The notes under the pieces: model-generated | Seen by the model: the letters and a program-made list of their open reading frames with translations, nothing else | The model's database searches: none | What the model was told of the DNA's origin: nothing | From: Amphiscolops sp. MND2022 | Taxonomy: Eukaryota | NCBI GenBank assembly: GCA_964187785.1 | Contig: OZ076409.1 | Span: 75,518,001 to 75,582,000 of the forward strand | Length of the DNA stretch: 64,000 nt | Direction: 5' to 3' | Shown: piece after piece, positions 1 through 64,000 of the stretch | Numbering within the stretch: the first letter of the stretch is position 1 | Layout of the letters: every line of letters starts with the position of its first letter | Translations under genes and position numbers: made by a program

Positions 1-242
1 CGACATTTTCATAGAGTTAAATCTTGGTAATCTGTCTGGATATGCAGAAAAACCAGTACGTGCTTTTTTATACCAAGTTGCTTACAACGACAATTATTTT
101 ATATCAACGCCCCCATATTTATCAACGCCCCCCGTCCGTGGGCATGCCGAGGCATGCCCTTCGACGACGTATACCAAAATATGTTCGAGCGCGTTAGCCT
201 AGGTGCCGGGACTTCTATTCGATAAAGTATGTGGCGCGCCTT

Positions 243-254
243 GGGTAGGGTCCC
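243..254 (+). other. Conserved head motif GGG(T/G)AGGG(C/T)CC (representative copy)
   Basis: Found about 40-50 bp after the junction in all four families (243, 6654, 42752, 44147) although the surrounding sequence differs. Confidence 0.85.
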
Positions 255-310
255 TTGCGCGCTCTTGGGTATGGTGTTCACCAGCTAGGAAACAGGGGTC
301 GATTTTTCGG

Positions 311-591
311 GATCTCCTAAACTAGCCACACGATTTGGCTGAAATTTGGCACACGTACCCCCCTCGGCACGGTGAAGATGATTTCCTACTGACGTTTTTC
401 CCGCAAAATTTTTTTTGTTGTCCAAAATAACGGTTTTTGGGGTAAAATTTCGAATTTTTTTTAAATTTTATCTTATATCTCGCCACGGGTTTACGCTAGC
501 GCTTCAAAACCCTGCTAAAGAAAGCTCGCAAACTGTCTCAGGAATGCGGTGTGAAATTTTCAGCTCAATCGGACTCAAACTCAGGGAGATA
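311..591. repeat. Imperfect inverted repeat pair in the 5' part of family A units (representative copy)
   Basis: 311-354 GATCTCC...CGATTTGGCTGAAATTTGGCACAC versus 549-591 GTGTGAAATTTTCAGCTCAATCG...GGAGATA. Confidence 0.75.
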
Positions 592-1176
592 TAGCGTTTT
601 TCCGGAGCGGGGGGGTTTCATTTTTCTAACGGTCCAGCTTATCTTAGCCATTTTTTCGAAAATGTACTCGCCTAAAGACCTCCCCTGGCCGGTTTTATTC
701 CCAGCAAAACCATTTGGCCCTAAATACGGAGTTTCAGCGTTCCAGCATTCCCGGGCGAAAAGTTGTGGGACTTAGAAAATTTCAAAAATTTTCAAAATTT
801 TTTTTTTCCGTTTTCCGCCCTCCCCCCCTAGGGGAAAAGACCCCCCAACCAGTAATTTGAGTGATTTCATGTGGAAAGGCCATGTTTAGAGGAGAAAAAA
901 GCCGTTTAGAACGTCTTTTTATCTTGGCTCAACGTTGACTTATGACGTTTTGAAGGTGATGTTTGGAGGTGTAAAGCACGTGAATAGTAAACGTTATGAG
1001 TATTTATCTGATCTGAAAGCCATTGAGATGCAACCTGTTTTGCTCAAAACGTAATTCATTGCAGTTTGGCAGTCAATCATCACCCTTTGTTGTCGTTTGA
1101 CATACTTTTTTGTTGTTATAATAAAAAATTTTGTGTATTAATTCATTTTTTTCTCATCAAATAACTTGAAACAGTT

Positions 1177-1221
1177 GAGTACATTCCATCCCCCCTTCAC
1201 GGGGGAGATGAGAATGTACTC
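1177..1221. other. Conserved long hairpin of family A (representative copy)
   Basis: Consensus GAGTACATTC-CATCTCCC-loop-GGGAGATG-A-GAATGTACTC, roughly 250-290 bp before the junction in every complete A unit. The loop is variable. Confidence 0.9.
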
Positions 1222-1391
1222 GCAAAAAGCCCCGAACTACGGCCCTTACCTTCCTGAGCTACGCAGTATAAAGATTGCATATTGGTTCCGACATTTTGAT
1301 AGAGTTATATCTTGGTAATCTGTCTGGGTATGCAGAAAAACCAGCACGTGCTTTTTTATACCAAGTTGCTCACAACGACATTTATTTTATA

Positions 1392-1493
1392 TCAACGCCC
1401 CCATATTTATCAACGCCCCCCGTCCGTGGGCATGCCGAGGCATGCCCTTCGACGACGTATACCAAAATATGTTCGAGCGCGTTAGCCTAGGTG
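1392..1493 (+). other. Conserved terminal module (representative copy): TCAACGCC x2, GGGCATGCC-GA-GGCATGCCC palindrome, TTCGACGACGT, variable tail, CTAG|GTG
   Basis: The palindrome lies at 1428-1447 here and is present before 44 of 48 junctions, in families A, B and C. Confidence 0.92.
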
Positions 1494-6614: not shown

Positions 6615-8580
6615 GTGCGGGGGGGAAACCCCTTCCTTTATCTTGGAGGATTCGGGTAGGGTCCTGAATCCGATTTTAGTTCGCCCAGCTCTCAGTAGAA
6701 ATCTGGGAAATTTTTTGCGATCTCGTGATCTAACCATAGGATTTTAAAGTTGGAGCGGCCCCCACCAGATTTTCCAAAGTTATTCGCCCCCCACCGGGTT
6801 CCAGCGTGATTGAAATATTTTGACGGGGTACACGGGCGACCGTTAGGGGTCATTTTGGGGGTAAAATTTATATCCGGTCGCATAACTTTTTTCCTGTTGG
6901 ATTAAAACTTTGGGACCCTGCTAAAAGTTTCTTGACCGTGTTGCGGGGGCTCCGGAGGTCCAAACCAAATTTTTCTATCTTGAAGCTATCTCCAAGTACC
7001 CCCCCGCCCAAAACGTTATTTTTCCGGAAACGCAGGTTTTTGACCCGGAAGGAGTCGTCGGAGCGCGGGGTCGTTAGGTGATGTATTGGGGACGGCCTTG
7101 AGACGAAGTGGGGGACATGCAGTTTGCCAACCCCAGTTTACCCCCCGGACGGGAAATGACCGTTATATGAGCGGGAAAAATGCCCCCCTCCACGTTTTAC
7201 CGCTATTTCCGGTGTGAAGGAGTGGGAGTAGCGCGTCGGGTGCCATATATCAAAAGTAGGTTTGAACAAGGAACTATCGGAAACATGTGGTTTGGGACCC
7301 CCTGGACCAACCCGTTAGCGGGAAATGGGGCTTCCGCCTCCTTTTTTTACTGCTAAAACAGTAAAATGGGCATTGAGGGGTAAATATCTCGTGAACGCGT
7401 GGAGCTACGGTGTCCATCACTACTACAAGGTTTCATACCCATGATATGGTGCCTTCAGGGGGGCAAACAGATTTCCGCTATCTATCACCGTTACCGACTT
7501 GGCCCCCCAGCCTAACCGCTATGTGACCGGAAATGTCACTTTTTGAGCCCAAAGGGTCGGTCCCAGCCGGGGAACGTTAGGTAAATTACTGTAGTACTCA
7601 ATGAGACGAGTTGGGGGATATAGTTTCAGTCACCCCCCGTTACCCCTTGGGACCGGAAATGACCGTTATGTGGGTAAAATTGCAATTTTTATACTTTTTC
7701 AAGTGTATTTAGGTGCGGAAGGAGTGGTAATAGGTGCTTGGACACTATATGAGGTAAGGGAGGACGTGAGGCGAGCATTCGGAAATAACCGTTATGTTGA
7801 CCCTAAAGTCCCCCTGGTACCGTAAACGACCGGAAATGGTCAAATTTTGTGTCTATTGGGTACAAATGTTTAGTATTTTGTAGATAAAAGTATCTATTAG
7901 GTGTTTCGACGGTCTGCAGTAGTGAACATAGTCATGAAACCTTGTGGGGGGTAACGGTATATAGCACCGGAAGTCCAAACCGTTGGTGACAGGATAGGTT
8001 TTTTGGTTTTAAAATGTCTTTCGGCGTACCTTTGTCGACTATTAAGGACTATTTTTAAAAATTAAAGATTTTCCATATAGTTTCAGAGACCTCGAAACCT
8101 CAACCAACATAACCGTTACCTCATGATAGCCTTTCAAGTTGGCCTGGTGTCAACTTGGAAGGGCTATCCTTCAAAAATCGTCAATCAAGTGTGTTTTTGG
8201 GTATGTTTGTATCATTTTAGAATCAATTAGAGCTTCAAGAAAAGTTTCCCAACAACAAAAACTATGTCGTGAAGATTCCGTTACTAGAATTATAGTAAGC
8301 AAATTGTTGAGAAAATTTTTTTTTCCAAATTAAATGTGTCCTAAATGCCAGGAAACCTATTTTACTAACAAATAGTATTGATTGGAATGTATGTAACAGA
8401 TTTATAAAAGTTCAAATTATTAAGTTTCATTATGGAAGCTGAAACGTAATATTTTAGTTTAATTAACGTCAACGCCACATACTTTACATCAACGCCCACC
8501 GTCTGTGGGCATGCCGAGGCATGCCCTTCGACGACGTATACCAAATACATACCTAACGACGCCCGTACATCCCGGGCTAG
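6615..8580. mobile_element. Family B unit (1966 bp), putative non-autonomous mobile cassette
   Basis: Body is not alignable by eye to family A. It starts GTGCGGGGGG, has GGGTAGGGTCC at +40 and ends in the shared palindrome module plus CTAG. It is homologous to 16274-18246, 24670-26640 and 29223-31195. The repeat is certain; mobility is inferred. Confidence 0.7.
8125..8168. other. Long imperfect hairpin of family B (representative copy)
   Basis: GATAGCCTTTCAAGTTG-gcctggtgt-CAACTTGGAAGGGCTATC, present with minor changes in all four B units. Confidence 0.8.
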
Positions 8581-13715: not shown

Positions 13716-16273
13716 GTGCCCAAATCCATCGATTTACCTTCATTTTGAGGGCGGGGTAGGGCCCACGCCCGGTTCAACAGGCTTTAGACTGACAACGTTA
13801 AGCCATTTCGCAAAATGGAAGCGATTTTCTAAACGAGCCGTCAGATTTTGCTGAAATTTTGCATGCGGCTTCCTCTAGCAATTCTAAGAACTAATCCCTA
13901 CTGGCGTTTTGCCCGGAAAATTTTTTTTGTTGACTTATAGACAATTTTAGGTCCAAAAAATGGCGTTTTTTTGGAAAAATTTTTTTTAAGAGCCTATATC
14001 TCGCTCCCAGGTGCCCGTAGCGACCAGACCTCGGACGGTACTATTGCTGGGCACTTCGTAAGGAGCCCGTAGACAAATTTTCGTACAGATCGGATAAAAA
14101 TTGATAGAGTAATAGCCGCCGATTTGGCGAATTTTTTCGACATTTTTCGAAATCCCAGTCTATCTCTGCCGTTTTTTGCCCAGATTTTTTTCCAGGACCT
14201 CTCCTAAAGACCTCCCCTGGCCGGTTTACCTCCCAAAAAAACCATTTGGCCCTTTTGCCGCAGTTTCAGCGTTCCAGGATTCCCCGGGTAAAAGTAAAAT
14301 GTCTTAGAATTTTTTCGAAAAATTTTCAAAAATTTTTTTTTCAACTTCAGGCCTCCCAAAGTCAAGAAACGTCCACACAACTAGTATTGCAAGTGGATGC
14401 ATGTGGAAAGTGCTCGAATAGACGAGAAAAATGAGCTATTATAAACCTCTGTAGCTCAACCTGACGTTGACTTATGACAATTTTAATGTGAGCTTGCTAT
14501 GTGAGAAAAAATTTCAAAAATTGAAAATTGAAGCTAAGTCTCATCCAAAACTCATCCGAATACGTTCAATCCATCCCAAAGCGGTTTATTTCCAGCTATA
14601 GAGTGCAGCAACACCGTTCAAGGTCATTTGACCCATTTTAATAGGTTTTGACTCTGTCTTATCCATCCGAAAGTTCGAAACAGTTAAGTACATTCCATCT
14701 CCCCTCCGTGGGAGATGGTAATGTACTCGCAAAAAGCCAAGTATTACCACCCTATTCTATCCGTAGTGGTGCTAGAAATGCAGTAGCGGGAGCGCCAGGC
14801 TGTTTACAGTAGCTTTTATGGGTGTTGTGACTATGTATTACAAATCTAACTATGTTACTGAACGTGAAAAAGTTGTTTCAATCCAGTTTTTTCCCACATT
14901 TTTTTATGTCATCAATAAAGATATATCCATGCATTTACTACTACCTACCCCATCACCCGCCCCCTCCACTATCTGTTCAACCGTGCACGTCTAGGTGCCA
15001 AGCTTTGACCAGCAACCCAACTCTTTGAGGGCGGGGTAGGGCCCCCAGCCCGAACATAAGGCTTTAGACTTTCAACGTAAGGCCGATGGTACTACCTAAT
15101 AGCGATTTCGAAAACGGCCCGTCAGATTTTGCTCAAATTTTGCATACGGCTTCCTATACCAATCCTAAGAACTATTTCCTACTGGCGTTTTGCCCAAAAA
15201 AATTTTTTTGTGGGTCAAAATCTTAGTTTTTTGGTCAAAAAATGGCATTTTTTTGGAAAAAAATTTTTTAAGAGTCAATATCTCGTCCCACAGGCCCCGG
15301 ATCAAAAAGTGTACAATTGTTCGTTTGTTAGGCACTTCATGAACTGTCCGTAGACAAATTTTCGTCCAGATCGGAATAAAATTGACTGAGTAATAAAAAA
15401 CTTTGAAAGTGATTTTGACGTCATTTTTCGAAAACCTAGTCTATCTCTGCCGTTTTTTGCCCAGATTTTTTTCCAGGACCTCTCCTAAAGGCCTCCCCTG
15501 GCCGGTTTACCTCCCAGAAAAACCATTTGGCCCTTTTGCCGCAGTTTCAGCGTTCCAGGATTCCTTGAGTAAAGTAAAATGACTTAGAATTTTTTCGAAA
15601 AATTTTCAATAAAAAATTTTTTTTTCTTCAGGCCTCCCAAAGTCAAGAATTGTCCACACAACTAGTATTGCAAGTGGATGCATGTGGAAAGTGCTCGAAT
15701 AGACGAGAAAAATGAGCTATTATAAACCTCTGTAGCTTAATCTGACGTTGACTTATGACAATTTTAGTGTGAGCTTGCTATGTGAGAAAAAATTTCAAAA
15801 ATTGAAAATGGGAACTAAGTCTCATCCAAAACTCATCCGAATACGTTCAATCCATCCCAAATCGGTTTATTTTCAGCTGTTCAGTGCAGCAACACCATTA
15901 AAGGTCATTTAACCCACATTTATAAGTTTTGACACCGTCTTATCCATCCGAAAGTTCGAAACAGTTAAGTACATTCCATCTCCCCTCCGTGGGAGATGGT
16001 AATGTACTCGCAAAAAGCCAAGTACTATCGCCCCATTCTACCCGTAGTGGTGCTAGAAATGCAGTAGCGGGAGCGCCAGGCTGTTTAAAGTAGCCTTTAC
16101 GGGTGTTGTGACTGTATAACAAATCTAACTATGTTACTGAACGTGAAAAAGTTGTTTCAATCCAGTTTTTTCCCACATTTTTTTATGTCATCAATAAAGA
16201 TATATCCATGCATTTACTACTACCTACCCCATCACCCGCCCCCTCCACTATCTGTTCAACCGTACACGTCTAG
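13716..16273. repeat. Two family A variant units (1279 bp each) with an alternative terminus lacking the GGGCATGCC palindrome
   Basis: Units 13716-14994 and 14995-16273 keep the internal A blocks but end CCTACCCCATCACCCGCCCCCTCCACTATCTGTTCAACCGT(G/A)CACGTCTAG. Confidence 0.93.
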
Positions 16274-18246
16274 GTGCGGGGGGGTAACCCCTACAAAGAT
16301 ATTGGAGGATTCGGGTAGGGTCCTGAATCCGAGTTCAGTGCTGCCAGCTATCGTTAGGGATTTTAGAAAATTTTGCCGATCTCGTGATCTAACCGTAGGA
16401 TTTTAAAGTTGGAGCGGCCCCCACCTGATTTTCCAAAGTTATTCGCCCCCCACCGGGTTCCAGCGTGATTGAAATATTTTGACGGGGTACACGGGCGACC
16501 GTTAGGGGTCATTTTGGGGGTAAAATTTATATCCGGTCGCATAACTTTTTTCCTGTTGGTTTAAAACTTTGAGACCCTGCTAAAAGTTTCTTGACCGTGT
16601 TGCAGTGGCTCCGGAGGTCCAAACCAAATTTTTCTATCTTGAAGCTATCTCCAAGTACCCCCCCGCCCAAACCGTTATTTTTCCGGAAACGCAGGTTTTT
16701 GACCCGGAAGGAGTCGTCTGAGCGCGGGGTCGTTAGGTGATGTATTGGGGACGGCCTTGAGACGAAGCGGGGGACATGTAGTTTGCCGACCCCTGTTTAC
16801 CCCCCGGACGGGAAATGACCGTTATTTGAGCGGGAAAAATGCCCCCCTCCACGTTTTACCGCTATTTCCGGTGTGAAGGAGTGGGAGTAGCGCGTCGGGT
16901 GTTATATAACAAAAGTAGGTTTAGACAAGGACCTATCGGAAACATGTAGTTTGAGACCCCCTGGACCAACCCGTTAGCGGGAAATGGGGCTTCCGCCTCC
17001 TTTTTTTACTGCTAAAACCGTAAAATGGGCATTGAGGGGTAAATATCTCGTGAACGCGTGGAGCTACAGTGTCCATCACTACTACAAGGTTTCACACCCA
17101 TGATATGGTGCCTTCAGGGGGGCAAACAGATTTCCGCTATCTATCACCGTTACCGACTTGCCCCCCCAGCCTAACCGCTATGTGACCGGAAATGTCACTT
17201 TTTGAGCCCAAAGGGTCGGTCCCAGCCGGGGAACGTTAGGTAACTTATTGTAGTGCTAATTGAGACGAGTTGGGGGATATAGTTTCAGTCACCCCCCGTT
17301 ACCCCTTAGGACCGGAAATGACCGTTATGTGGGTAAAATTGCAATTTTTATACTTTTTCAAGTGTATTTAGGTGCGGAAGGAGTGGTAATAGGTGCTTGG
17401 ACACTATATGAAGGAAGGGAGGACGTGAGGCGAGCATTCGAAAATAACCGTTATGTTGACCCCGAAGTCCCCCTGGTACCGGAAGTGACCCGTAATGGTC
17501 AAATTTCGTGTTTTTAGGGTACAAATATTTGGTGTTTTATGGATAACAGTGCCTATTAGGTGTTTCGACGGTCTGCAGTCGTGAACATAGTTATGAAACC
17601 TTGTGGGGGGTAACGGTATATAGCACCGGAAGTCCAAACCGTTGGAGACAGGATAAGTTTTTTGGTTTTAAATGTCTTTCGGCCTACTTTTGTCGACTAT
17701 TATGGACTATTTTTGGAAAATAAAGTTTTTCCATATAGTTTCAGAGACTCCGAAACCTCAACCAACATAACCGTTACCTTATGATAGCCTTTCAAGTTGG
17801 CCTGGTGTCAACTTGGAAGGGCTATCCTTCAAAAATCATTAATCCAGTGTGTTTTTGAGTATGCTTGTTTTACTTTAGAATCAATTAGAGCTTCAAGAAA
17901 AGATTGCCAACGACAAAAACTATGTCGTGATGATTCCGTTATTAGAATAATAGTTACCAAAATGTTGATAAAGTTGATTTTTTACATTTCAAATATGTCC
18001 TAAATGCCAAAAAACCTATTTACCAAACAAATGGAATTGATTGAATTGTATATAGAAGCTAATAAAAGTTCAAATTGAATATTACATTTCATTATGCAAG
18101 CTGAAACGTCAAATTATAGTTTAATTAACGTCAACGCCACGTACTTTACATCAACGCCCACCGTCCGTAGGCATGCCGAGGCATGCCTTTCGACGACGTA
18201 TACCAAATTCCACCCACACAACACCCTCGAGCGCGGTAGCCGCTAG
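16274..18246. mobile_element. Family B unit (1973 bp)
   Basis: Homologous to 6615-8580. Its last bases (CGAGCGCGGTAGCCGCTAG) are of the family A type. Confidence 0.7.
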
Positions 18247-20832: not shown

Positions 20833-22111
20833 GTGCCAAGCTTTGACCAGCAACCCAACTCTTTGAGGGCGGGGTAGGGCCCCCAGCCCGAACATAAGGC
20901 TTTAGACTTTCAACGTAAGGCCGATGGTACTACCTAATAGCGATTTCGAAAACGGCCCGTCAGATTTTGCTCAAATTTTGCATACGGCTTCCTATACCAA
21001 TCCTAAGAACTATTTCCTACTGGCGTTTTGCCCAAAAAAATTTTTTTGTGGGTCAAAATCTTAGTTTTTTGGTCAAAAAATGGCATTTTTTTGGAAAAAA
21101 ATTTTTTAAGAGTCAATATCTCGTCCCACAGGCCCCGGATCAAAAAGTGTACAATTGTTCGTTTGTTAGGCACTTCATGAACTGTCCGTAGACAAATTTT
21201 CGTCCAGATCGGAATAAAATTGACTGAGTAATAAAAAACTTTGAAAGTGATTTTGACGACATTTTTCGAAAACCTAGTCTATCTCTGCCGTTTTTTGCCC
21301 AGATTTTTTTCCAGGACCTCTCCTAAAGGCCTCCCCTGGCCGGTTTACCTCCCAGAAAAACCATTTGGCCCTTTTGCCGCAGTTTCAGCGTTCCAGGATT
21401 CCTTGAGTAAAGTAAAATGACTTAGAATTTTTTCGAAAAATTTTCAATAAAAAATTTTTTTTTCTTCAGGCCTCCCAAAGTCAAGAATTGTCCACACAAC
21501 TAGTATTGCAAGTGGATGCATGTGGAAAGTGCTCGAATAGACGAGAAAAATGAGCTATTATAAACCTCTGTAGCTTAATCTGACGTTGACTTATGACAAT
21601 TTTAGTGTGAGCTTGCTATGTGAGAAAAAATTTCAAAAATTGAAAATGGGAACTAAGTCTCATCCAAAACTCATCCGAATACGTTCAATCCATCCCAAAT
21701 CGGTTTATTTCCAGCTGCTCAGTGCAGCAACACCATTAAAGGTCATTTAACCCACATTTATAAGTTTTGACACCGTCTTATCCATCCGAAAGTTCGAAAC
21801 AGTTAAGTACATTCCATCTCCCCTCCGTGGGAGATGGTAATGTACTCGCAAAAAGCCAAGTACTATCGCCCCATTCTACCCGTAGTGGTGCTAGAAATGC
21901 AGTAGCGGGAGCGCCAGGCTGTTTAAAGTAGCCTTTACGGGTGTTGTGACTGTATAACAAATCTAACTATGTTACTGAACGTGAAAAAGTTGTTTCAATC
22001 CAGTTTTTTCCCACATTTTTTTATGTCATCAATAAAGATATATCCATGCATTTACTACTACCTACCCCATCACCCGCCCCCTCCACTATCTGTTCAACCG
22101 TACACGTCTAG
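20833..22111. repeat. Family A variant unit with alternative terminus
   Basis: Near-identical to 14995-16273 and the same length (1279 bp). Confidence 0.93.
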
Positions 22112-24669
22112 GTGGCCGTGTCTTTTCGACGTGCTTTTGCATCGAGGAGTGGGTAGGGCCCCGCGACGACCTAGAAGAATTGGATGCTCACCGAAACGTG
22201 CAGAATTCTACGAGATCTCATAGTTTGAGCCATACGATTTTTCTGAAATTTGGCATGTGGCCTGGAATTGGTGAGTAGGTAAAACGTGTAGGAGGTAATT
22301 TTTCCCAAATTCCATTGTGAGAGGAGATATGGGCAAATAACGGACCCAAAAATGGGGAAAATGCACTTTTTTCAAGTTTGTCAGCCAAAATCTCATTTCC
22401 AGGTGCCCGTAGCGTCCCGCACGTGGACGTCAATATTGCTCAGCGCTGTTAGAGGAGTGCGTGGACAAATTTTGGTTGAAATCGGACGAAAACGTGAGGA
22501 GAAATTAACGGTTTTCCGGGTGTTTCCGGGTTAAAATTTTTAACGGTCCAGCTTATCTTTGCCATTTTTTCGAAAATGTACTTGCCTAAAGGCCTCCCCC
22601 TGGCCGAATTTCCTCCCAGCAAACCCATTTGGCCCTAAATACGGAGTTTCAGCGTTCCAGCATTTCCGGGCGAAAAGTTGTGGGACTTAGAAAAATTTCA
22701 AAATTTTTCAAAAAATTTTTTTTCGTTTTCCGGGCCCCCAATGAAGGGGAACGACCCCCCAACCAGTATTTTGAGTGATTGCATATCGAAAGCCCTTGTT
22801 TTGACGAGAAAAATACCGTTTCGAACATCTTTTTATTTTAACTTGGCGTTGACTTATGACGTTTTGAATGTGATGTTAGGATGTGTGAGGCATGTGAAAA
22901 GTTGATGTTTTGAGTATTTATCTCATGTGAAAGCGATTGAGATACAAGCTGTTTCGCTCAAAACGGGTTTCATCGTAATTTCGCAGTGCATCATTGACCT
23001 TTGTTGTCTTTTGAAGAATTTTTTCTTCATATAACAACAATTTTGGTGTGTTTCTTCCAATTTTTCTCATCTTCTAATTTGAAACAGTTGAGTACATTTC
23101 ATCTCCCTTTCGGGGGAGATGAGAATGTACTCGCTAAAAACCTAGTGCTTTTGCGCCGCAATGTTTGCAAAAGTTGTTATTATTGCTGTTCCATCAGCAT
23201 TTTCTAACTGACTTTTTTAAAACTATCAATTAACTTGAAGTACATTACTTGAACTTACTACTAATACCATACATCTCTAACGACAACGCACCCTGCTTGC
23301 ATCAACGCCCACCGTCCGTGGGCATGCCGAGGCATGCCCTTCGACGACGTATGCCAAATACCAAATGCCACGCTGTCATTATCGCTAGGTGGCCGTGTCT
23401 TTTCGACGTGCTTTTGCATCGAGGAGTGGGTAGGGCCCCGCGACGACCTAGAAGAATTGGATGCTCACCGAAACGTGCAGAATTCTACGAGATCTCATAG
23501 TTTGAGCCATACGATTTTTCTGAAATTTGGCATGTGGCCTGGAATTGGTGAGTAGGTAAAACGTGTAGAAGGTAATTTTTCCCAAATTCCACTGTGAGAG
23601 GAGATATGGGCAAATAACGGACCCAAAAATGGCAAAAGTGCACATTTTTCAACTTTGTCAGCCAATATCTCATTTCCAGGTGCCCGTAGCGTTCCGCACG
23701 TGGACATCAATATTGCTCAGCGCTGTTGGAGGAGTGGGTGGACAAATTTTGGTTGAAATCGGACTTAAACTTGACGAGAAATTAACGGTTTTTTGGGCGT
23801 TTCCGGGGTAAATTTTTTAACGGTCCAGCTTATCTTTGCCATTTTTTCGAAAATGTACATGCCTAAAGGCCTCCCCCTGGCCGAATTTACTCCCAGCAAA
23901 CCCATTTGGCCCTAAATACGGAGTTTCAGCGTTCCAGCATTCCGGGGCGGAAAGTTGTGGGACTTGGAAAAATTTCAAATTTTTTTCAAAATTTTTTTTC
24001 CCGTTTTCCGGGCCCCCAATGAAGGGGAACGACCCCCCAACCAGTATTTTGAGTGAATTCATGTGGAACGCCCATGTTTGGAGGAGAAAAATGCCGTTTA
24101 GAACATCTTTTTATCTTAACTTGACATTGACTTATGACGTTTTGAATGTGATGTTAGGATATATGAAGCATGTTAAAAGTTGAAGTTTTGAGTCTTTATC
24201 TCATCGGAAAACCATTGAGATACAAGCAGTTTTGCTAAAAACGATTTTCATTGTAGGTTAGCAGAGTATTAGTACACTTTGATGTCATTTGAGTATTTTT
24301 TTCTTCTATATAATAACTGTTTTTATGTATTTATTCCAATTTATCTCATCTTTTAACATCAAGCAGTTGAGTACATTTCATCTCCCTTTCGGGGGAGATG
24401 AGAATGTACTCGCTAAAAAACTAATGCTTTGGCGCCAATGTTTGGATGGGAAGTTTTCTATGTTTTGAAAAAAGTTATTTTTAATTACTTGATTTTTTAA
24501 AACAATAATTAACATGAAGTACATTACTTGCTCCTACTACTACCACCATACATCTCTAACGTCAACGCCCCCTGCTTGCATCAACGCCCCATCGTCCGTG
24601 GGCATGCCGAGGCATGCCCTTCGACGACGTATGCCAAATGCCCAGTGCCACACAGTCTTTCCCCGCTAG
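22112..24669. repeat. Family A units 17-18 (GTGGCCGTGTC-head subtype)
   Basis: Units 22112-23388 and 23389-24669 share a head but have diverged 3' halves. Confidence 0.94.
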
Positions 24670-26640: not shown

Positions 26641-29222
26641 GTGCCGGGATTTCTATTCGATAAAGTATGTGGCGCGTGTGGGTAGGGTCCCTGGCGCGCT
26701 CTTGGGTATGGTGTTCACCAGCTAGGAAATAGGGGTCGATTTTTCGGGATCTCGTAAACTAGCCACACGATTTGGCTGAAATTTGGCACACGTACTCCCC
26801 TCGGCACGGTGAAGATGATTTCCTACTGACGTTTTTCCCGCAAAATTTTTTTTGTTGTCCAAAATAACGGTTTTTGGGGTAAAATTTTGAATTTTTTTTA
26901 AATTTTATCTTATATCTCGCCACCGGTTTAGGCTAGCGCTTCAAAACCTTGCTAAAGAAAGCTTGCAAACTGTCTCAGGAATGCGGTGTGAAATTTTCAG
27001 CTCAATCGGACTTAAACTCGGGGAGATATAGCGTTTTTCCGGAGCGGGGGGGTTTCATTTTTCTAACGGTCCAGCTTATCTTAGCCATTTTTTCGAAAAT
27101 GTACTCGCCTAAAGACCTCCCCTGGCCGGTTTTATTCCCAGCAAAACCATTTGGCCCTAAATACGGAGTTTCAGCGTTCCAGCATTCCCGGGCGAAAAGT
27201 TGTGGGACTTAGAAAAATTCAAAAATTTTCAAAAAAAAATTTTTCCGTTTTCCGCCCTCCCCCCCTAGGGGAAAAGACCCCCCAACCAGTAATTTGAGTG
27301 AATTCATGTGGAAAGGCCATGTTTAGACGAAAAAATTGCCGTTTAGAACGTCTTTATATCTCAACCTGACATTGACTTATGAAGCTTTAAAGGTGATGTT
27401 TGGACGTGTGAAGCATGTAAAAAAAGGAATTTTTTTGATTTTATTTCATCAGAAAGTCATTGAATTACACGCTGTGAAGCCCAGAGCGTGGTTTCTAATA
27501 GTTTGGTATCGTTTAAACGCATTTTGGTGTCTTTTTACTCTGTTTAAAAAACTTTTCTCCTGAAAATTAATAAATTTTGATTACTTTTCTTACTTTCCAT
27601 TAATTTTTTTTTCTTATATTTTTACTTGAAACAGTTGAGTACATTCCATCTCCCTTCCCGGGGGAGATGAGAATGTACTCGCAAAAAGCCGCGAACTACG
27701 GCCCATACCTTCCCGAGATACGCAGTATAAAGATAACATAATGGTCCAGACATTTTAATGGAGTTGTATCTTGGTAATATGTCTGGATTTGCAGAAAAAT
27801 CAGCACGTGCCATTTTATACCAAGTTGCTCGCAACGACAATTAATTTAAATCAACGCCCCCCACAAAAATCAACGCCCCCCGTCCGTGGGCATGCCGAGG
27901 CATGCCCTTCGACGACGTGCACCAAAATATGCCCCGAGCGCGTTAGCAGCTAGGTGCCGGGATTACTATTCGATAAGGAATTTTGCGCGTTTGGGTAGGG
28001 CCCCGTGAGCGCGCCAGGGGATAGTGTTAGAACAACAAGGATTTGGGCATCAGTTGGGAGCGATTTTCTAAACTATCCGTACGATTTTGCTGAAATTTGG
28101 CACGAAGCTTCCTTGGAACATTCTAAGAACAAATCCCTACTGGCGTTTTGCTGGGAAAAATCAAAAAGTTGGTCAAAAATGCGATTTTCCGACAAAATTT
28201 TGGGGTAAAATTTTTTTGAAACGTTATATCTCGCCACAGGGTCACGCTAGCGCCTCGCAACCTATGATCGTGTTTTGTTGGGCGTTGTCTGTAGAACACG
28301 TATGCCAAATTTGGTGGCGATCGGACTTAAACTCAGGGAGATATAGCGATTTTTTAGGTGCATTTTTCGACATTTTTTGCGTTTGCCGATTTATCTCTGC
28401 CGTTTTTGCCCAAATTTTTTTTGAGACACTCTCCTAAAGACCTCCCCTGGCCGGTTTACCTCCCAGAAAAACCATTTGGCCCTAAATACGAAGTTTCAGC
28501 GTTCTAGCATTCCCGGGCAAAAAGTTGTGGGACTTAGAATAGTTTTTATGGTAACGCAAAATGTGTAAAGTCAACTTCAGGCCTCCCAAAGTCAAAGAAC
28601 TTCCACACAACTAGGATTGCAAGTGGGTGCATGTGGAAAGTACTCGGATAGACGAGAAAAATGAGCTATAGAACGACTCTGTAGCTTAACCTGACGTTGA
28701 CTTATGACAATTTTAGTGTGAGCTTGCTATTTGGTGTAAAAATTCAAATGATGAAAATCGAAGCTAAGTCTCATCCAAAACTCATCGGAATACGTTCAAT
28801 GCATCCCAAAGCGGATTAATTCGAGATGTTTAGTGCAGCAACACCATTCAAGACCATTTGACCCATTTTTATAAGTTTTGACAACGTATTATTCATACGA
28901 GAGCACGAAACAGTTGAGTACATTCCATCTCCCTTTCGGGGGAGATGAGAATGTACTCGCTAAAGTCCAGGTACTACAGCCCATATTTGCTTTTATGCGA
29001 CGCTCTTATGCTAGTGCGCATACTTTTTAATCGTTTAACTGAATTTTCTTCTGTCTGCACTTTGACTTTGACTTGACATATAGTGAACGTTTTGTCTTAC
29101 AACTTACAAATGAGTAACGTCAACGCCCCATCCTTGCATCAACGCCCACCGTCCGTGGGCATGCCGAGGCATGCCCTTCGACGACGTATGCCAAGATATA
29201 TCCCAAGCGCGGTAGCCGCTAG
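26641..29222. repeat. Family A units 20-21
   Basis: Units 26641-27953 (1313 bp) and 27954-29222 (1269 bp) carry the family A blocks. Confidence 0.94.
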
Positions 29223-42703: not shown

Positions 42704-44105
42704 GTGGTCGGGTATTTTTTTTTACTCGTATATGACGTTTGCGAGGCTTTGGGGAGGGCCCCGTGCCGAGCCTGTTCCGAAAATCGCCACATGTAGAAAT
42801 CTGGCACTAAAATGCGAGATCTCAAAAAGTAGCCGTTAAAATTCTCTGAAATTTTGCATGTGGCTCAGAATTAGTGAGTAATGAAAAAGTGTAGGAGTGA
42901 AAGTCGCTGAAAAAATGGTCCTTGTTGCACTTTTTGCGCAATTTTTGTCTGATTGTTGCGTTTTTTATGTCATTTTCGACTTTTCAAGCAAAAAACTCAT
43001 GGATGCTTTGTTCCTAGCGCATCAAGTGTGGAGCACGAAAAGTTGCAGCATCTCCAAGTGCGTATGCTGAGAAAATTTGGTTGCCGTCGGGTTACCCCCC
43101 ACAGAGCTAGAGGGGTACTTCCGGTTATTTTTGACCCCCTAAATTAGGTAATTTGCTAATTTTTGTAATGAAGCCGTAGATTTAGCGTGTCCGCACCCTG
43201 CTGAAGTTTTGTTAAACATTTTGCGAGAGACCCAATGACATGTGTTCAGTTCACCCCCCATCACCCCCTTGACCGGAAATGAACGTTTTTGTGCACTTTC
43301 AGACCGGATGTCTCCATTTTCACCGGTAAGGAGGCCTTGTACGACCAACTAGCAGGATATCAAAATTTAAGTATAACCCAGGGTCAACTTAATGACCACG
43401 TGTTGTCCAGTCATGGGTTTCACTATGACCGGAAATGGGCTCAAAACCCCACTTTTAGTAGTTTTTTATCAATTTGAATAGTGTTTGGTCCACATTCAGG
43501 TGGCGTAAGTCACTTGCACCAGTGTGAGTATTAACTGCATGTTCCCTGCGTAGACGTAACTGACACTGTCAGATACCGGAAGTAACCCCATGTGACCGGA
43601 AGTGGTCAATTTTGACCGGAAATGGTTCAAAAAGTAGCGTAAAAGCAGTTTTTCACTATTTTTAGGGACAATTTTTTACTTTTTTTCAATCTGAATGCCT
43701 CCTTTATACTACCAAAGCTAACATCGTTGCCTGTTTTGCTAAAGATTTGGCAATTGATTACCTTTATCAACCCCGATAGCCTTCCAAGTTGACCTTGGGT
43801 CAATCTTGAAGGCTATCTATACTTAAAACGAAAAATCGAGATAAGTTGTTTTCTCCATTACGTTGATAATTTTTCCTTGATGTCAAATTGTTAAGCAAAG
43901 ACTTTTAAGCAAATTAATGATCGGAATCTTGTTCAGAGGTCTCACCCTGAGGAAGATTATTTGAGATTGATGTAAACTGAGAATGAGGTTAGTATTTGTC
44001 AACATCAGAGAATCTTATCAACGCCCACCGTCTGTGGGCATGCCGAGGCATGCCCTTCGACGTCGTATGCCAAATAGCGCCACAGGGCGCCCACACTTTT
44101 GCTAG
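42704..44105. mobile_element. Family C unit (1402 bp), single copy in window, distantly related to B
   Basis: Starts GTG after CTAG, has GGGAGGGCCCC at 42752, several ACCGGAA(A/G)T motifs and a GATAGCCTT...AAGGCTATC hairpin at 43775-43817 as in B. It ends with the shared palindrome plus CTAG. Confidence 0.65.
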
Positions 44106-45151
44106 GTGGTCCGGGGTAGTTCCCCACATTATTTAGTGCGAGGCCGGGGAGGGTCCCGATGCCGAGCTTAATTTTCGCGTGTCGTACTATATCCTTTAGC
44201 ACACCAGTCAAAAAACGGCGATTTTCGAATTGAACCGATAAAACTTCTTTAAACTTTGCATGTGTACTTATCTTGCCGATGTAAGAATGATGTTCTGCTG
44301 GTCAAACATGATCCTATTACTTGGCGGGAAGTTATGAGCAAATGATCGGGTTTTTCACCCAATTTCGGTACTTTTTCGCTGCGATATCTGCAGCATGTGG
44401 ATACAATTGGCTGATACTTTGCATGCGAGGCATTAATGATGTCAGGTGTTTGCATGCCAAAAATCATTAGGCTGGTGATACTAGGCTGAGAGATAGAAGT
44501 GAACGAAGTAACAGAAATTTGTGAATTTTCCTGTCATTGCGTCATAATTTCCGAACTTTTATACAAATGATGTTTCCTTTAGCGGTAGCAGTACAGTCGA
44601 TGTGTTTTCAACATCACGTGGCCAGGATAAAAAATTAAAAATAAAAAAGTTCTACAAAAGTTCTCCAAAAATTCTAAAAATTGCGAATTTTTTCAAAAAA
44701 AAAATTTTTCGGGTTCCATTGTATTTTTATACCAGGAATTCAAAAATCACATTATTTATCGTGTCAACGGCGCCAAAATGGGTTTATTTTTAATATTGAC
44801 CGCTTTCACCAGCTTGATATACCAGTTTCAGTAAGTATTTGAAAAATACTCAGGGTTGAGGCAAATGCATAAGTAGCACGATTTTAAAACGTAATTTTAT
44901 TTGTCACCGGTGTTCCGAGGGATGCACAGCAGCACGCAGGAACAACGGTGACCCGGAAGGAAGGCTGTAGATACTTGTTACGACCGAAGGCAGTCACTGT
45001 TTAGTTTTGTTCGACATGATTATGTACGTCGTTGCGATGTGCATCAGCAAAAATTCACATCAGTGACCCCAAAGTGGAACAAGTTATACATGAATTGAGA
45101 ACAGACAGTACCGTTCGGCCCCCTGGTAATTGGTAGCTTTGCCTCCACTGG
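44106..45151. mobile_element. Family D unit (1046 bp), single copy in window, ends CTGG|GTG
   Basis: Starts GTG after CTAG and has GGGAGGGTCCC at 44147. The body is unique and lacks the GGGCATGCC palindrome. It is followed precisely by an intact A head (GTGGCCGGAAATTTT). Confidence 0.6.
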
Positions 45152-54100: not shown

Positions 54101-57100
54101 TCGAGCGCGGTAGCCGCTAGGTGGCCGTGTCTTTTCGACGTGCTTTTGCATCGAGGAGTGGGTAGGGCCCCGCGACGACCTAGAAGAATTGGATGCTCAC
54201 CGAAACGTGCAGAATTCTACGAGATCTCATAGTTTGAGCCATACGATTTTTCTGAAATTTGGCATGTGGCCTGGAATTGGTGAGTAGGTAAAACGTGTAG
54301 GAGGTGATTTTTCCCAAATTCCACTGTGAGACGAGATATGGGCAAATAACGGACCCAAAAATGGCAAAAATGCACATTTTTCAACTTTGTCACCCAATAT
54401 CTCTTTTCCAGGTGCCCGTAGCGTTCCGCACGTGGACATCAATATTGCTCAGCGCTGTTGGAGGAGTGCGTGGACAAATTTTGGTTGAAATCGGACGAAA
54501 ACGTGAGGAGAAATTAACGGTTTTCCGGGTGTTTCCGGGTTAAAATTTTTAACGGTCCAGCTTATCTTTGCCATTTTTTCGAAAATGTACTTGCCTAAAG
54601 GCCTCCCCCTGGCCGAATTTCCTCCCAGCAAACCCATTTGGCCCTAAATACGGAGTTTCAGCGTTCCAGCATTTCCGGGCGAAAAGTTGTGGGACTTAGA
54701 AAAATTTCAAAATTTTTCAAAAATTTTTTTTTCGTTTTCCGGGCCCCCAATGAAGGGGAACGACCCCCCAACCAGTATTTTGAGTGATTGCATATCGAAA
54801 GCCCTTGTTTTGACGAGAAAAATACCGTTTCGAACATCTTTTTATTTTAACTTGGCGTTGACTTATGACGTTTTGAATGTGATGTTAGGATGTGTGAGGC
54901 ATGTGAAAAGTTGATGTTTTGAGTCTTTATCTCATGTGAAAGCGATTGAGATACAAGCTGTTTCGCTCAAAACGGGTTTCATCGTAATTTCGCAGTGCAT
55001 CATTGACCTTTGTTGTCTTTTGAAGAATTTTTTCTTCATATAACAACAATTTTGGTGTGTTTCTTCCAATTTTTCTCATCTTCTAATTTGAAACAGTTGA
55101 GTACATTTCATCTCCCTTTCGGGGGAGATGAGAATGTACTCGCTAAAAACCTAGTGCTTTTGCGCCGCAATGTTTGCAAAAGTTGTTATTATTGCTGTTC
55201 CATCAGCATTTTCTAACTGACTTTTTTAAAACTATCAATTAACTTGAAGTACATTACTTGAACTTACTACTAATACCATACATCTCTAACGACAACGCAC
55301 CCTGCTTGCATCAACGCCCACCGTCCGTGGGCATGCCGAGGCATGCCCTTCGACGACGTATGCCAAATACCAAATGCCACGCTGTCATTCTCGCTAGGTG
55401 CCGGGATTACTATTCGTTCAAGGATGTTGCGCGTGTGGGTAGGGCCCCTGGCGCGCTCTTTTATTTCGGGTACACCTACTCCAAATTCACGATGTGATTT
55501 CGACCATCTCGTAAACTAGCCACACGATTTGGCTGAAATTTGGCACACGTACCCCCCTCGGCACGGTGAAGATGATTCCCTACTGACGTTTTGCCCGCTA
55601 AACATTTTTTGTTGACCAAAATAACGGTTTTTGGGGTAAAATTTTCAACTTTTTTTAAATTTCATCTTACATCTCGCCACGGGTACACGCTAGCGCTTCA
55701 AAACCTTGCTGACGAAAGCTTGCAAACTGTCTCGGGAATGCGGTGTGAAATTTTCAGCTCAATCGGACTCAAACTCGGGGAGATATAGCGTTTTTCCGGA
55801 GCGGGGGGGTTTCATTTTTCTAACGGTCCAGCTTATCTTTGCCATTTTTTCGAAAATGCACTCGCCTAAAGGCCTCCCCTGGCCGGTTTTATCCCCAGCA
55901 AAACCATTTGGCCCTAAATACGGAGTTTCAGCGTTCCAGTTTTCCCGGGCGAAAAGTTGTGGGACTTAGAAAAATTCAAAAATTTTCAAAAATTTTTTTT
56001 CCGTTATTTGGGCCCCCAAAGTGGGGGAAAAGACCCCCCAACCAGTAAAGCAAGTGAATGCATGTGGAAAGCCCTTGTTTAGAGGAGAAAAATGCCGTTT
56101 AGAACGTCTTTTTATCTTGGCTCAACGTTGACTTATGACGTTTTGAAGGTGATGTTTGGAGGTGTAAAGCACGAGAATAGTAAACGTTATGAGTATTTAT
56201 CTGATCTGAAAGCCATTGAGATGCAATATGGTTTGCTCAAAACGTAATTCATGGCAGTTTGGCAATCAATCAACACCCTTTGTTGTCGTTTGACATACTT
56301 TTTTGTTGTTATAATAAAAAATTTTGTGTATTTATTCATTTTTTTCTCATCAAATAACTTGAAACAGTTGAGTACATTCCATCCCCCCTTCCGGGGGAGA
56401 TGAGAATGTACTCGCAAAAAGCACCGAACTACGGCCCTTACCTTCCCGAGCTACGCAGTATAAGGATTACATATTGGTTCCGACATTTTCATAGAGTTAA
56501 ATCTTGGTAATCTGTCTGGATATGCACAAAAATCAGCACGTGCTTTTTTATACCAAGTTGCTCATAACGACAATTATTTTATATCAACGCCCCCATATTT
56601 AATAACGCCCCCCGTCCGTGGGCATGCCGAGGCATGCCCTTCGACGACGTATACCAAGATATGTTCGAGCGCGGTAGCCGCTAGGTGGCCGGAAATTTTT
56701 TTTTTCAGCAAAATCTTTGCCATTGGGGGAGGGGCCCCGGATGGCCAGTAGTACGGGATAGCTTCCTACCAAATCCAGATGGAAAAAACGTGATTTTGGA
56801 AACTAGCCGTCAGAATTTGCTCAAATTTTGCATACGGCTTCCTATAACAATTCTAAGAACTAATCCCTACTGGCATTTTGCCCAAAAAACGCAAAAAGTT
56901 GGTCAAAATCTTAGTTTTTTGGTCAAAAAATGGCGTTTTTTCGAAAAAAAATTTTTTCAGAGACAATTACTCGTAACTGGTTCACCCAGCGCAAAAACGC
57001 CTAGCTGATTTATTGTTGGGCACTTCAAGAGGAGTGCGTATACAAATTTTCGTCTAAATCGGATAAAAGTTGATTGAGAAATAACTGAAAATTTCAGGCA

Positions 57101-60100: not shown

Positions 60101-63100
60101 GCAATTTGGCAGTCAATGAACACAATTTGGTGTCTTTTGTTATATTTTTCTGTTGATATAATAAAAAATTTGTGTCTTTATTAATTTTTTTTAAATAAAA
60201 TAACTTGAAACAGTTGAGTACATTCCATCCCCCCCTTCCGGGGGAGATGGAAATGTACTCGCTAAAAGCCGCGAACAAGAGCCCATACCTTCCTGCGCTA
60301 CGCAGTATAAAGATTGCATGTTGGTTCCGACTTTTTGGTAGTGTTATATCTTGGTAATTTGACTGAATATGGAGAAAAATCAGCAAGTGCTCTTTTATAG
60401 CAAATTGCTGACAACGACAATTTTTTTATATCAACGCCCCCATATTTATCAACGCCCCCCGTCCGTGGGCATGCCGAGGCATGCCCTTCGACGACGTATA
60501 CCAAGATATACTCCCGAGCGCGGTAGCCGCTAGGTGCCGGGATTACTATTCGTTCGAGTATGTGGCGCGTGTGGGTAGGGCCCCTGGCGCGCTCTTTTAT
60601 TTCGGGTACACCTACTCCAAATTCACGATGTGATTTCGACGATCTCGTAAACTAGCCACACGATTTGGCTGAAATTTGGCACACGTACCCCCCTCGGCAC
60701 GGTGAAGATGATTCCCTACTGACGTTTTGCCCGCTAAACATTTTTTGTTGACCAAAATAACGGTTTTTGGGGGAAAATTTTGAACTTTTTTTAAATTTCG
60801 TCTTATATCTCGCCACGGGTTTACGCTAGCGCTTCAAAACCTTGCTAACGAAAGTTTGCAAACTGTCTCAGGAATGCGGTGTGAAAATTTCAGCCCAATC
60901 GGACTTAAACTCGAGGAGATATAGCGTTTTTCCGGAGCGGGGGGGTTTCATTTTTCTAACGGTCCAGCTTATCTTTGCCATTTTTTCGAAAATGCACTCG
61001 CCTAAAGGCCTCCCCTGGCCGGTTTTATTCCCAGCAAAACCATTTGGCCCTAAATACGGAGTTTCAGCGTTCCAGCATTCCCGGGCGAAAAGTTGTGGGA
61101 CTTAGAAAAGTTCAAAAATTTTCAAAAAATTTTTTTTCCGTTTTCCGCCCTCCCCCCCTAAGGGAAAAGACCCCCCAACCAATAATTTGAGTGAATTCAT
61201 GTGGAAAGGCCATGTTTAAAGGAGAAAAATGCCGTTTAGAACGTCTTTTTATCTTGGCTCAACGTTGACTTATGACGTTTAGAAGGTGATGTTTGGAGGT
61301 GTAAAGCACGTGAATAGTAAACGTTATGAGTATTTATCTGAACTGAAAGCCATTGAGATGCAATATGGTTTGCTTAAAACGTAATTCATGGCCGTTTGGC
61401 AATCAATCAAACCCTTTGTTGTCGTTTGACATACTTTTTTGTTGTTATAATAAAAACTTTTGTGTATTTATTCATTTTTTTCTCATCAAATAACTTGAAA
61501 CAGTTGAGTACATTCCATCCCCCCCTTCCGGGGGAGATGAGAATGTACTCGCAAAAAGCACCGAACTACGGCCCTTACCTTCCCGAGCTACGCAGTATAA
61601 AGATTGCATATTGGTTCCGACATTTTCATAGAGTTATATCTTGGTAATCTGTCTGGATATGCAGAAAAACCAGCACGTGCTTTTTTATACCAAGTTGCTC
61701 ACAACGTCATTTATTTTATATCAACGCCCCCATATTTATCAACGCCCCCCGTCCGTGGGCATGCCGAGGCATGCCCTTCGACGACGTATACCAAGATATA
61801 CATCGGGCGTGTGCCTAGGTGGCCGGAAATTTTTTTTTCATCAAAATCTTTGCCATTGGGGGAGGGGCCCCGGATGGCCAGTAGTACGGGATAGCTTCCT
61901 ACCAAATCCAGGCGGAAAAAACGTGATTTTGGAAACTAGCCGTCAGAATTTGCTCAAATTTTGCATACGGCTTCCTATGACAATCCTAAGAACTAATCCC
62001 TACTGGCATTTTGCCCAAAAAACGCAAAAAGTTGGTCAAAATCTTAGTTTTTTGGTCAAAAAATGGCGTTTTTTCGAAAAAAAATTTTTTCAGAGACAAT
62101 TACTCGTAACTGGTTCACCCAGCGCAAAAACGCCTAGCTGATTTATTGTTGGGCGCTTCATGAGGAGTGCGTATACAAATTTTCGTCCAGATCGGAAGAA
62201 AAATGACTAAGTATTAGCCGGAATTCGGACGCATTTTTTCGCAAATTTTTGAAAACCTAGTCTATCTCTGCCGTTTTTTGCCCAGATTTTTTTCCAGGTC
62301 CTCTCCTAAAGGCCTCCCCTGGCCGGTTTACTTCCCAGAAAAACCAATTGGCCCTAAATACGGAGTTTCAGCGTTCTAGCATTCCCGGGCGAAAAGATGA
62401 GGGACTTAGAAAAAATTCAAAATTTTTCAAAAAAATTTTTTTTCGTTTTCCGGCCCCCCAATGAAGGGGAACGACCCCCCAACGAGGATTTTTGGTGAAT
62501 TCACGTGGAAAGGCCTTGTTTTGTGGAGCAAATTGCCGTTTAGAGCAACTTTTTATCTTAACTTGACGTTGACCTCTGTCGTTTTGAATTTGATATTAGT
62601 ATGTGTTGAGCATGTGAAAAGTTGATGATTTCAGTTGTTCTCTCGTGTTCAAGCCATTGAGATACAAGCGGTAGTGATCAAAATGTGCTTTATCGCACTT
62701 TGATGGTGCTTTTGGTGTATTTTGATTCTTTTAAATAATAAGTTGTTCTTTATATATTTGGTGTATTGATTCAAATGAACAAGAAACAGTTGAGTACATT
62801 TCATCTCCCCCCTTGTGGGGGAGATGAGGATGTACCCGCTAAATGACACGCACAATGGCCTAATTTTATTTTTATGCGACCTTTTCTAGGCTTTTGCGCA
62901 AGCTCACTAAAATTTAGACTGGTTTCCTTTTCTTTTACTCCAAAATTTTCCGTACTAACCACCTTACGCACCACCAGCTCAACGTAACATGTGTAACGTC
63001 AACGCCACACACTCTCACTAACGCCCACCGTCCGTGGGCATGCCGAGGCATGCCCTTCGACGACGTATGCAAATAGCGCCACAGGGCGCAAACATTCCCG

Positions 63101-64000
63101 CTAGGTGCCGGGATTTCCATTCGATAAGGAATTCTGCGCGTGTGGGTAGGGCCCCTGGCGCGCTCCTGTGTTTTCGGTTTTCCTACTCCAAATTCACACC
63201 CCAGTTATCTCCGATCTCGTAAACTATCCATACGATTTGGCTGAAATTTGGCACACGTACCCCCCTCGGCACGGTGAAGATGATTTCCTACTGACGTTTT
63301 TCCCGCTAAACATTTTTTGTTGACCAAAATAACGGTTTTTGGGGTAAAATTTTCAACTTTTTTTAAATTTTATCTTATATCTCGCCACGGGTACACGCTA
63401 GCGCTTCCAAACCTTGCTGACGAAAGTTTGCAAACTGTCTCAGGAATGCTGTGTGAAATTTTCAGCTCAATCGGACTTAAACTCGAGGAGATATAGCGTT
63501 TTTCCGGAGCGGGGGGGTTTCATTTTTCTAACGGTCCAGCTTATCTTTGCCATTTTTTCGAAAATGCACTCGCCTAAAGGCCTCCCCTGGCCGGTTTTAT
63601 TCCCAGCAAAACCATTTGGCCATAAATACGGAGTTTCAGCGTTCCAGCATTCCCGGGCGAAAAGTTGTGGGACTTAGAAAATTTCAAAAATTTTCAAAAA
63701 TTTTTTTTCCGTTATTTGGGCCCCCAAAGTGGGGGAAAAGACCCCCCAACCAGTAAAGCAAGTGAATGCATGTGCAAAGCCCTTGTTTAGAGGAGAAAAA
63801 TGCCGTTTAGAACGTCTTTTTATCTTGGCTCAACGTTGACTTATGACGTTTTGAAGGTGATGTTTGGAGGTGTAAATCACGTGAATAGTAAACGTTATGA
63901 GTATTTATCTGATCTGAAAGCCATTGAGATGCAATATGGTTTGCTCAAAACGTAATTCATGGCAGTTTGGCAATCAATCAACACCCTTTGTTGTCGTTTG
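45152..64000. repeat. Family A units 34-47 plus a partial unit
   Basis: Fourteen complete units of 1266-1309 bp. The partial unit 63105-64000 matches the start of 35012-36297. Confidence 0.95.

Follow-up and report, generated by a model that had tools for sequence, protein, structure and literature searches.

A co-oriented array of Helitron-like units

The window analysed here, a 64-kb stretch (C1:75518001-75582000) of a 1.07-Gb eukaryotic genome, is filled from end to end (1..64000) by a segment of an array of co-oriented, head-to-tail, non-autonomous Helitron-like elements. All features below lie on the plus strand and are given in window coordinates unless a contig is named. The segment comprises 47 complete and two partial units joined at 48 CTRG^GTG junctions. 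CTRGGTG occurs 48 times on the plus strand (47 with CTAG, one with CTGG), always at a regular unit boundary, against a chance expectation of 3.6 (maximum 12 in 100 dinucleotide shuffles of the window); the four minus-strand occurrences are all internal to units. Every complete unit starts with GTG(C/G) and finishes with CTRG. Unit lengths are 1265-1313 bp (41 units), 1966-1973 bp (four), 1402 bp (one) and 1046 bp (one), and outside short terminal blocks the bodies of different families do not align. An initial annotation had described whole, co-oriented modules of differing bodies that meet at a single 7-bp core at all 48 joints, and these counts bear it out. It had also called the modules non-coding: the window holds no open reading frame (ORF) longer than 169 aa and no tRNA (ARAGORN), and an Rfam scan of 46.5 of the 64 kb gave no family at gathering score, only three chance matches (E 0.48). 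An array of RNA genes or ribozymes was rejected on these results, and a short-period satellite was rejected because Tandem Repeats Finder returned only nine trivial rows for the window.

The four families first proposed do differ in body, but they share terminal motifs, and the largest is composite. Family A (41 units of ~1.28 kb; for example the unit at 203..1490, within a range of 1.27-1.31 kb) is a single homologous superfamily of mosaic subfamilies in which heads and bodies have been recombined. The first ~100 nt of its units appear as heads combined with varied bodies, the GTG start and hairpin remaining constant. Family B (6615..8580; also 16274-18246, 24670-26640 and 29223-31195) has a body unrelated to that of family A and the same terminal motifs; its four units are preceded by four different tails, as originally noted, and a 99.8% identical copy at C1:70.68 Mb has different neighbours. 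A third family is represented by a 1,402-bp unit with the same termini (42704..44105; 16 distinct members among the fetched loci), and a fourth by a 1,046-bp unit (44106..45151) that ends in CTGG and carries the 5' hairpin but not the 3' palindrome.

The left terminal sequence, exemplified at 203..265, consists of the GTG start and a predicted hairpin around GG(G/T)AGGG(T/C)CC, with the motif beginning 38-48 nt into the unit; it is found in 46 of the 47 complete units and is predicted to be the transposase initiation site. At the other end, 43 nt before the end of the unit, lies the subterminal palindrome GGGCATGCCG(A/T)GGCATGCCC (1428..1447), present in 42 of the 47 units under the strict pattern and missing from those starting at 13716, 14995, 20833 and 44106. 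It has 4,292 exact matches genome-wide (control, 0), folds as a stem-loop in prediction and is the predicted terminator hairpin. At an example junction, CTAG^GTG (1487..1493), the 3' end of one unit is followed directly by the 5' end of the next.

The array is uninterrupted over the 264 kb read around the window (C1:75448001-75712000), with 172 units from junction to junction and the left-end hairpin motif in 167 of 173 heads. Samples of 10 kb along C1:70.45-76.2 Mb contained plus-strand junctions in 15 of 15 cases and reverse junctions in none of 15; five samples taken outside this interval contained no junctions. The ~6-Mb region ends at C1:70,454,838 and near 76,487,300. It is made up of several arrays whose composition varies along the region, and it includes a few inverted copies and at least one free end. 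The whole genome holds 4,661 3'-end-to-head junctions and 4,543 5'-hairpin heads (controls, 0). Further arrays are found at several additional C1 loci as well as on C2, C3, C4, C6, C7, C8 and C10. The 354 distinct units fetched fall into 13 similarity groups, the largest of which merges A and B through compound units; 348 of them end in CTRG, the junction pattern used having demanded CTNG. Copies 99.6-99.7% identical to window units are present on C2 and C7, showing recent spread of units between chromosomes. Array orientation reverses at an assembly gap (C1:23.978 Mb) and at a short tail-to-tail inverted joint (C1:72.444 Mb).

Autonomous units encode a RepHel enzyme

The initial annotation had suggested a search for longer units with the same termini, and this identified autonomous units of 12-16 kb that share the ends of the window units and encode a RepHel, that is, a two-tyrosine (Y2) HUH Rep and a Pif1 helicase, often with a C-terminal GIY-YIG domain. 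Two such units reside in the window's own array. One, 40 kb downstream (C1:75621742-75637322; 15,581 bp), carries a RepHel split into 1694- and 592-aa frames; the other, 107 kb downstream (C1:75689385-75701434; 12,050 bp), has an open frame of 2,349 aa. Another array contains a 13,675-bp element with the same ends (C1:23994516-24008191). Its 2,377-aa frame scores above the Pfam cut-off for both Helitron_like_N (40.3 bits) and PIF1 (42.8 bits), and its C-terminal GIY-YIG (21.1 bits) falls slightly below the cut-off of 22.6. Of the two enzymes guessed at the outset, the HUH RepHel is thus the one found, with the same termini and in the same array; the other, a tyrosine recombinase, is not borne out, the corresponding Pfam domain being absent from the RepHel and accessory ORFs scanned, a subset of those in autonomous units.

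The enzyme is abundant and conserved. The Rep core of the 13,675-bp unit matches the genome at 138 places, often within open frames longer than 2,200 aa, and all 34 matches at C1:70.5-76.5 Mb lie on the array strand. Each of the 13 RepHel loci whose surroundings were examined sits among array units, with exact ends placed for all but five. Across 29 aligned proteins, motifs FxTxN, HxH, YxxxY and Walker A/B are conserved, the helicase part being absent from one split member. The Rep core has a median dN/dS (nonsynonymous to synonymous rate ratio) of 0.085 over the 23 unsaturated pairs that 23 distinct sequences provide, and some Rep cores are identical between chromosomes. The predicted model of the Rep region has a mean predicted local distance difference test score (pLDDT) of 74. 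Further large RepHel clusters lie close to contig (chromosome) ends, at C2:102-103.9 Mb and C3:2.4-3.9 Mb; the window region is interstitial.

Family-A units have their 5' ~770 bp in common with autonomous elements, and those that carry the palindrome share the last 55-136 bp as well. In the unit at 14995, the 5' 770 bp (14995..15764) match the 5' end of the 13,675-bp RepHel element at 92% identity. In the unit at 27954, the 5' 776 bp (27954..28729) match that of the 12,050-bp element of the window's own array at 87% identity, and the 3' 136 bp match this element at 84%. A conserved, imperfect internal hairpin of family-A units (1177..1221) has equivalents in 40 family-A units and in several longer non-autonomous families. 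It is unmatched in the three autonomous elements compared, and may act as a second terminator or derive from a captured signal.

RepHel is followed by a second gene, of 330-460 aa, in three metagenome relatives and in six of the eight autonomous units included in the comparison. It matches no Pfam family and no PDB sequence. The best fold match of its predicted model (pLDDT 88) is the MCM10 internal domain (Z 9.4, root mean square deviation 3.9, 117 aligned residues), followed by a match to RPA70 (Z 7.8), the matched part being residues 8-182. The gene product probably contains a single-strand-binding oligonucleotide/oligosaccharide-binding (OB) fold, although fold likeness alone does not establish function. 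Autonomous units also contain two additional ORFs that match no Pfam family, one of 222 aa (L016:7362-8027) and one of 357 aa (L057:2510-3580).

Insertion occurs without target duplication

The element runs from GTG to CTRG and inserts without target duplication at CT(A/G/T)G^(G/A/T)T. Two units nested in a family-A unit on C8 occupy the sites CTTG^GTAA and CTGG^GTAT with zero bases duplicated, and the empty site of both insertions exists as an intact family-A form inside the window. Together with eight solo or short-array insertions they make ten with both flanks, in which the upstream tetramer is CTTG (four), CTGG (four) or CTAG (two) and the downstream dinucleotide GT or AT; two of the ten have a common repeat flank and may not be independent. 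Because the upstream tetramer differs from the element's own CTAG end in 8 of 10 cases, it is not a duplication, and neither a 4-bp target duplication nor a terminal direct repeat is a tenable reading of CTAG. Of 20 loci fetched for their flanks, six had a clear 5' flank and one an ambiguous one; the remainder comprised four long arrays and nine cases of decay or truncation. At unselected free 3' ends, target position +2 is T in 28 of 32 cases versus a background of 0.31; five of these are junction variants within arrays. Upstream CTCG is also seen. Telomeric repeats are not the target, the flanks being other units, unique DNA or other repeats.

The initial annotation had proposed mobile modules that target their own fixed core. 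Mobility and self-targeting are supported; what does not stand is the core as a symmetric site, since it is composed of an element end and a target, CTNG^DT, that is not duplicated. The element's own junction fits this target, so that two sites would exist after each insertion, and the asymmetry accounts for the co-orientation of the units.

Individual loci illustrate the range of insertions. An internal CTTG^GT site at unit position ~1111-1114, ~175 bp before the 3' end, has been used on two chromosomes by different units, and a small array has developed inside one host unit (L115:3449; L297/L128). A solo 1.26-kb unit ending in CTTG sits at CTTG^GT in the coding region of a long terminal repeat (LTR) retrotransposon (C1:37447611), and the flanks of a solo insertion at C2:16.31 Mb look tRNA-derived by eye. 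Loci L145 and L225 have the same flanks and differ by one 3.07-kb unit, which may reflect independent insertions in a repeat. At C4:63.90 Mb, only the last ~177 bp of an element are present, and ~12 bp of the 3' flank recur upstream of them; this may represent an excision product or an aborted event.

Junction preference and unit order

The target rule does not by itself explain arrays. An estimate from a 150-kb sample gives ~4.4 million CTDG^DT sites and 114,000 CTRGGTG sites genome-wide, and yet 4,661 3' ends abut a head versus 52 + 83 = 135 that do not (free ends in CTGG or before G(A/C/G) not being counted separately). Because ~97% of counted ends abut another element despite millions of available sites, a 6-bp target rule is insufficient to produce the arrays.

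Our preferred reading, to which we assign a probability of roughly 75%, is that the units are non-coding Helitron-like derivatives, likely copied by the RepHel of the same array and likely inserted preferentially at existing junctions. Mobilization of the units by RepHel is very probable; that targeting of junctions, which RepHel would recognize, is the main builder of the arrays is probable. Helraiser offers a precedent, its plus strand being cleaved precisely at an end-to-end joint and circles serving as intermediates (PMC5876387). By analogy with Helraiser and IS91, RepHel would nick the plus strand at CTRG^GTG and peel off one unit, which would close to a circle whose joint is identical in sequence to an array junction; the circle would then be strand-transferred into a CTNG^ target. 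Circular intermediates are postulated here from Helraiser. Since the element has a CTRG end and a GT start, two matching sites of like orientation would result from every insertion. RepHel probably also favours such sites where its own terminal hairpins flank them, and many families with these ends would for that reason pile into common arrays. Internal recombination generates new mosaic units.

Unit order among the 172 units of the 264 kb is consistent with such stacking. No pair among 57 at >=99% identity has a neighbour in common, and 8 of 170 do at >=98%, in keeping with the whole-unit shuffling first proposed. The units at 22112-23388 and 54121-55397, singled out early as similar units in different company, are 98.7% identical, with left neighbours 61% and right neighbours 70% identical. 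The absence of a higher-order period likewise holds, in that no 4-unit word is repeated at 95%, 97% or 98.5% clustering. The early reading needs two qualifications. Unit order is near-random, but same-type neighbours are mildly enriched; and whole units are indeed shuffled at the core, but recombination inside units is found as well.

Several observations weigh against preferential junction insertion as the whole explanation. Same-type neighbours number 10 versus 3.4 expected at 97% (p=0.0015) and 39 versus 23 at 90%, pointing to a degree of local duplication or to concatemers. Homologous exchange acts within the array, since family-A units are internally recombined: their head swaps give four-gamete incompatibility against five downstream segments (counts 6-8). 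Nested insertions within units occur, and the excess at junctions could arise in part from purging of dispersed copies. Of three nested sites mapped in units, two have CA or CT downstream of the nick, which makes the +1/+2 rule loose; together with the upstream CTCG cases, they require the rule to be written as CTNG^ with a preference for DT. Moreover, several 3' tail types lack the palindrome, and the bodies of the B, 1,402-bp and 1,046-bp families could be traced to no autonomous parent.

Some of these points would be expected if the arrays of Helitron-like units had arisen from rolling-circle concatemers with bypass of the 3' end, followed by satellite-like unequal crossover and gene conversion, and with no preference for junctions. 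Tandem Helitron arrays have been ascribed to rolling-circle replication (PMC5876387, PMC5148889, PMC12001565), and the same-type enrichment, the regional differences in composition and the mosaic units all fit. Concatemers, however, predict identical neighbours, and of the 171 adjacent pairs only three reach 99% identity; block duplication would retain neighbours, at odds with the 0 of 57 near-identical pairs that do so and the lack of any 4-unit word repeated at >=95%; and non-homologous families, along with 12-16-kb autonomous units, are joined exactly at the core. We consider this origin unlikely. A little less likely again is insertion by the short CTNG^DT rule combined with local hopping or chromatin preference, selection then clearing dispersed copies so that the arrays persist as a safe harbour. 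Dispersed and nested insertions do exist (58 heads follow CTYG), and many free 3' ends belong to decayed copies. Yet within the array, where chromatin and selection should be alike, 306 internal same-strand CTDG^DT sites across the 264 kb are unused versus 172 junction-bounded intact units, a contrast to which selection for intact units may contribute. Finally, it is very improbable that the arrays are an artefact of assembly or that their units were shuffled by some unrelated recombinase, for instance of the tyrosine type: assembly gaps do lie in or close to some arrays and array order is known from the assembly alone, but units diverge by 0.2-50% in structured families, unique array flanks follow one target rule, RepHel proteins with 75-100% identical Rep cores occur on long contigs of a public protein collection, and no recombinase domain was matched in the scanned autonomous-unit ORFs.

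A Helitron lineage distinct from HLE1 and HLE2

The array elements belong to the Helitron superfamily: their RepHels fuse a Y2 HUH Rep to a Pif1 helicase; no target-site duplication accompanies insertion, as seen from the nested empty sites and the differing upstream tetramers of solo copies; and non-autonomous copies share both ends with autonomous ones in family A, the other three families sharing terminal motifs only. They fall outside both HLE1 and HLE2, the classes of Helitron-like elements (HLEs) defined in PMC11417382, on termini, target and phylogeny. In a Rep+Hel tree of 25 cores and 497 columns, seven array proteins and 11 database relatives are separated from two HLE1-like and five HLE2-like proteins with an ultrafast bootstrap of 100; the tree is unrooted and long-branched, and its HLE references are uncurated proteins of this genome, HLE1-like by Pfam score. 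Over these cores, array proteins are 19% identical to HLE1-like or HLE2-like proteins, which are 23.5% identical to each other. The same genome also carries canonical HLE1-like and HLE2-like Helitrons, which are dispersed and have long open frames.

With HLE1 (for example Helraiser) the array elements have in common a 3' CTRR after a hairpin (CTRG and the palindrome in the units described above), the lack of target duplication, an RPA-like accessory gene in some members and reported tandem arrays. HLE1 differs in its 5' TC and A^T target, as opposed to 5' GTG and CTNG^DT. Further differences of the array elements are a 3' hairpin ~45 nt from the end, a motif II without the RG dipeptide, the frequent C-terminal GIY-YIG, the 19% identity and separate branch, and arrays that mix many families. 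HLE2 (Helentron/Helitron2) is similar in its large RepHel of 2,200-2,600 aa with an occasional OTU domain, and GIY-YIG is reported in one HLE2 family, HelenSM92 of Sphagnum (PMC11417382). HLE2 differs in its DUF6570 and T^T target: DUF6570 was found in none of nine array RepHels and none of 20 database relatives versus all six HLE2-like proteins of this genome, the target is not T^T and the branch is separate. HLE2-type short asymmetric terminal inverted repeats are not evident in the unit ends, no dedicated search having been run.

The database relatives often carry GIY-YIG (13 of 20), and some may come from this or a close species. One relative is from hagfish. The 24 relative loci from metagenomes are too short to reveal arrays; a distant one (L269 1-100) begins with the 5' hairpin motif, a single match in 145 kb, which stands ~50 nt after CTGG or TTAG. 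In viral contigs no relative was confirmed. The lineage may belong to the unclassified HLE clusters of HELIANO (PMC11417382), which its listing gives for 19 genomes. Tandem Helitrons are already known, usually as short runs or ascribed to rolling-circle copies (PMC5148889, PMC12001565, PMC5876387); what is new here is the longer target and the apparently self-stacking arrays of mixed families. Searches of open-access PMC and bioRxiv texts, as distinct from subscription papers, Repbase and Dfam, yielded no account of these termini, this target or junction-targeted mixed arrays.

A satellite with higher-order repeats would show a recurring neighbour order, which the array does not. In integron cassette arrays, unrelated modules are stacked whole and co-oriented at a regenerated site, probably through circles. 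The likeness to the present arrays is by analogy: here an HUH/helicase enzyme would take the place of the tyrosine integrase, the modules are non-coding transposons, every junction can accept an insertion and the enzyme gene is itself a module. In IS91, a bacterial Y2 HUH rolling-circle element, the target tetranucleotide is the same as the element terminus. IS91 differs in being prokaryotic and in having no fused helicase, and we know of no mixed megabase arrays of it. Its insertion is likewise oriented, at a tetranucleotide, and free of duplication (PMC10288648, PMC5876387). Replitrons (PMC10288648) are eukaryotic HUH transposons as well and likewise insert in one orientation, 3' of a short target. 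They differ in their Y1 Rep, lack of helicase and true terminal direct repeats; the apparent CTRG repeat of the array elements is target-derived. Paramecium Helitrons, described as a third clade diverged from HLE1 and HLE2, resemble the array elements in their sequence-specific, strictly oriented insertion, in last four bases (CCAA) that resemble the target repeat and in clustered non-autonomous copies (PMC13085455). They differ in targeting telomeric repeats rather than their own junctions; one Hel01 copy, judged by eye, has an RG-type motif II versus the non-RG form in all 29 proteins aligned here, and GIY-YIG is mentioned neither in the main text nor in seven of the supplements (PMC13085455).

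Implications

A broader proposal, which we hold at somewhat better than even odds, is that an undescribed, widespread Helitron lineage, with a RepHel often bearing GIY-YIG and an OB-fold partner, acts as a site-specific single-strand recombinase that prefers its own junction and, adding one unit after another, builds integron-like arrays several megabases long from at least a dozen unrelated families, autonomous or not. This would provide a mechanism by which multi-megabase ordered repeat arrays are built through transposition and not unequal crossover, and a eukaryotic rolling-circle transposase with a target rule longer than A^T or T^T and apparent self-targeting. With intact, recently copied enzymes and a defined junction, Helitron target choice becomes directly testable, and an integrase that seeks junctions, makes no duplication and carries 1-15 kb of cargo would be attractive as a serial landing-pad tool. 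The hagfish and aquatic metagenome relatives suggest that the lineage is widespread and has been overlooked by tools tuned to TC...CTRR or TT ends. If the proposal is true, the arrays would represent a safe harbour built by transposons and a third route to heterogeneous satellite-like DNA, in which the order of units records their history of insertion.

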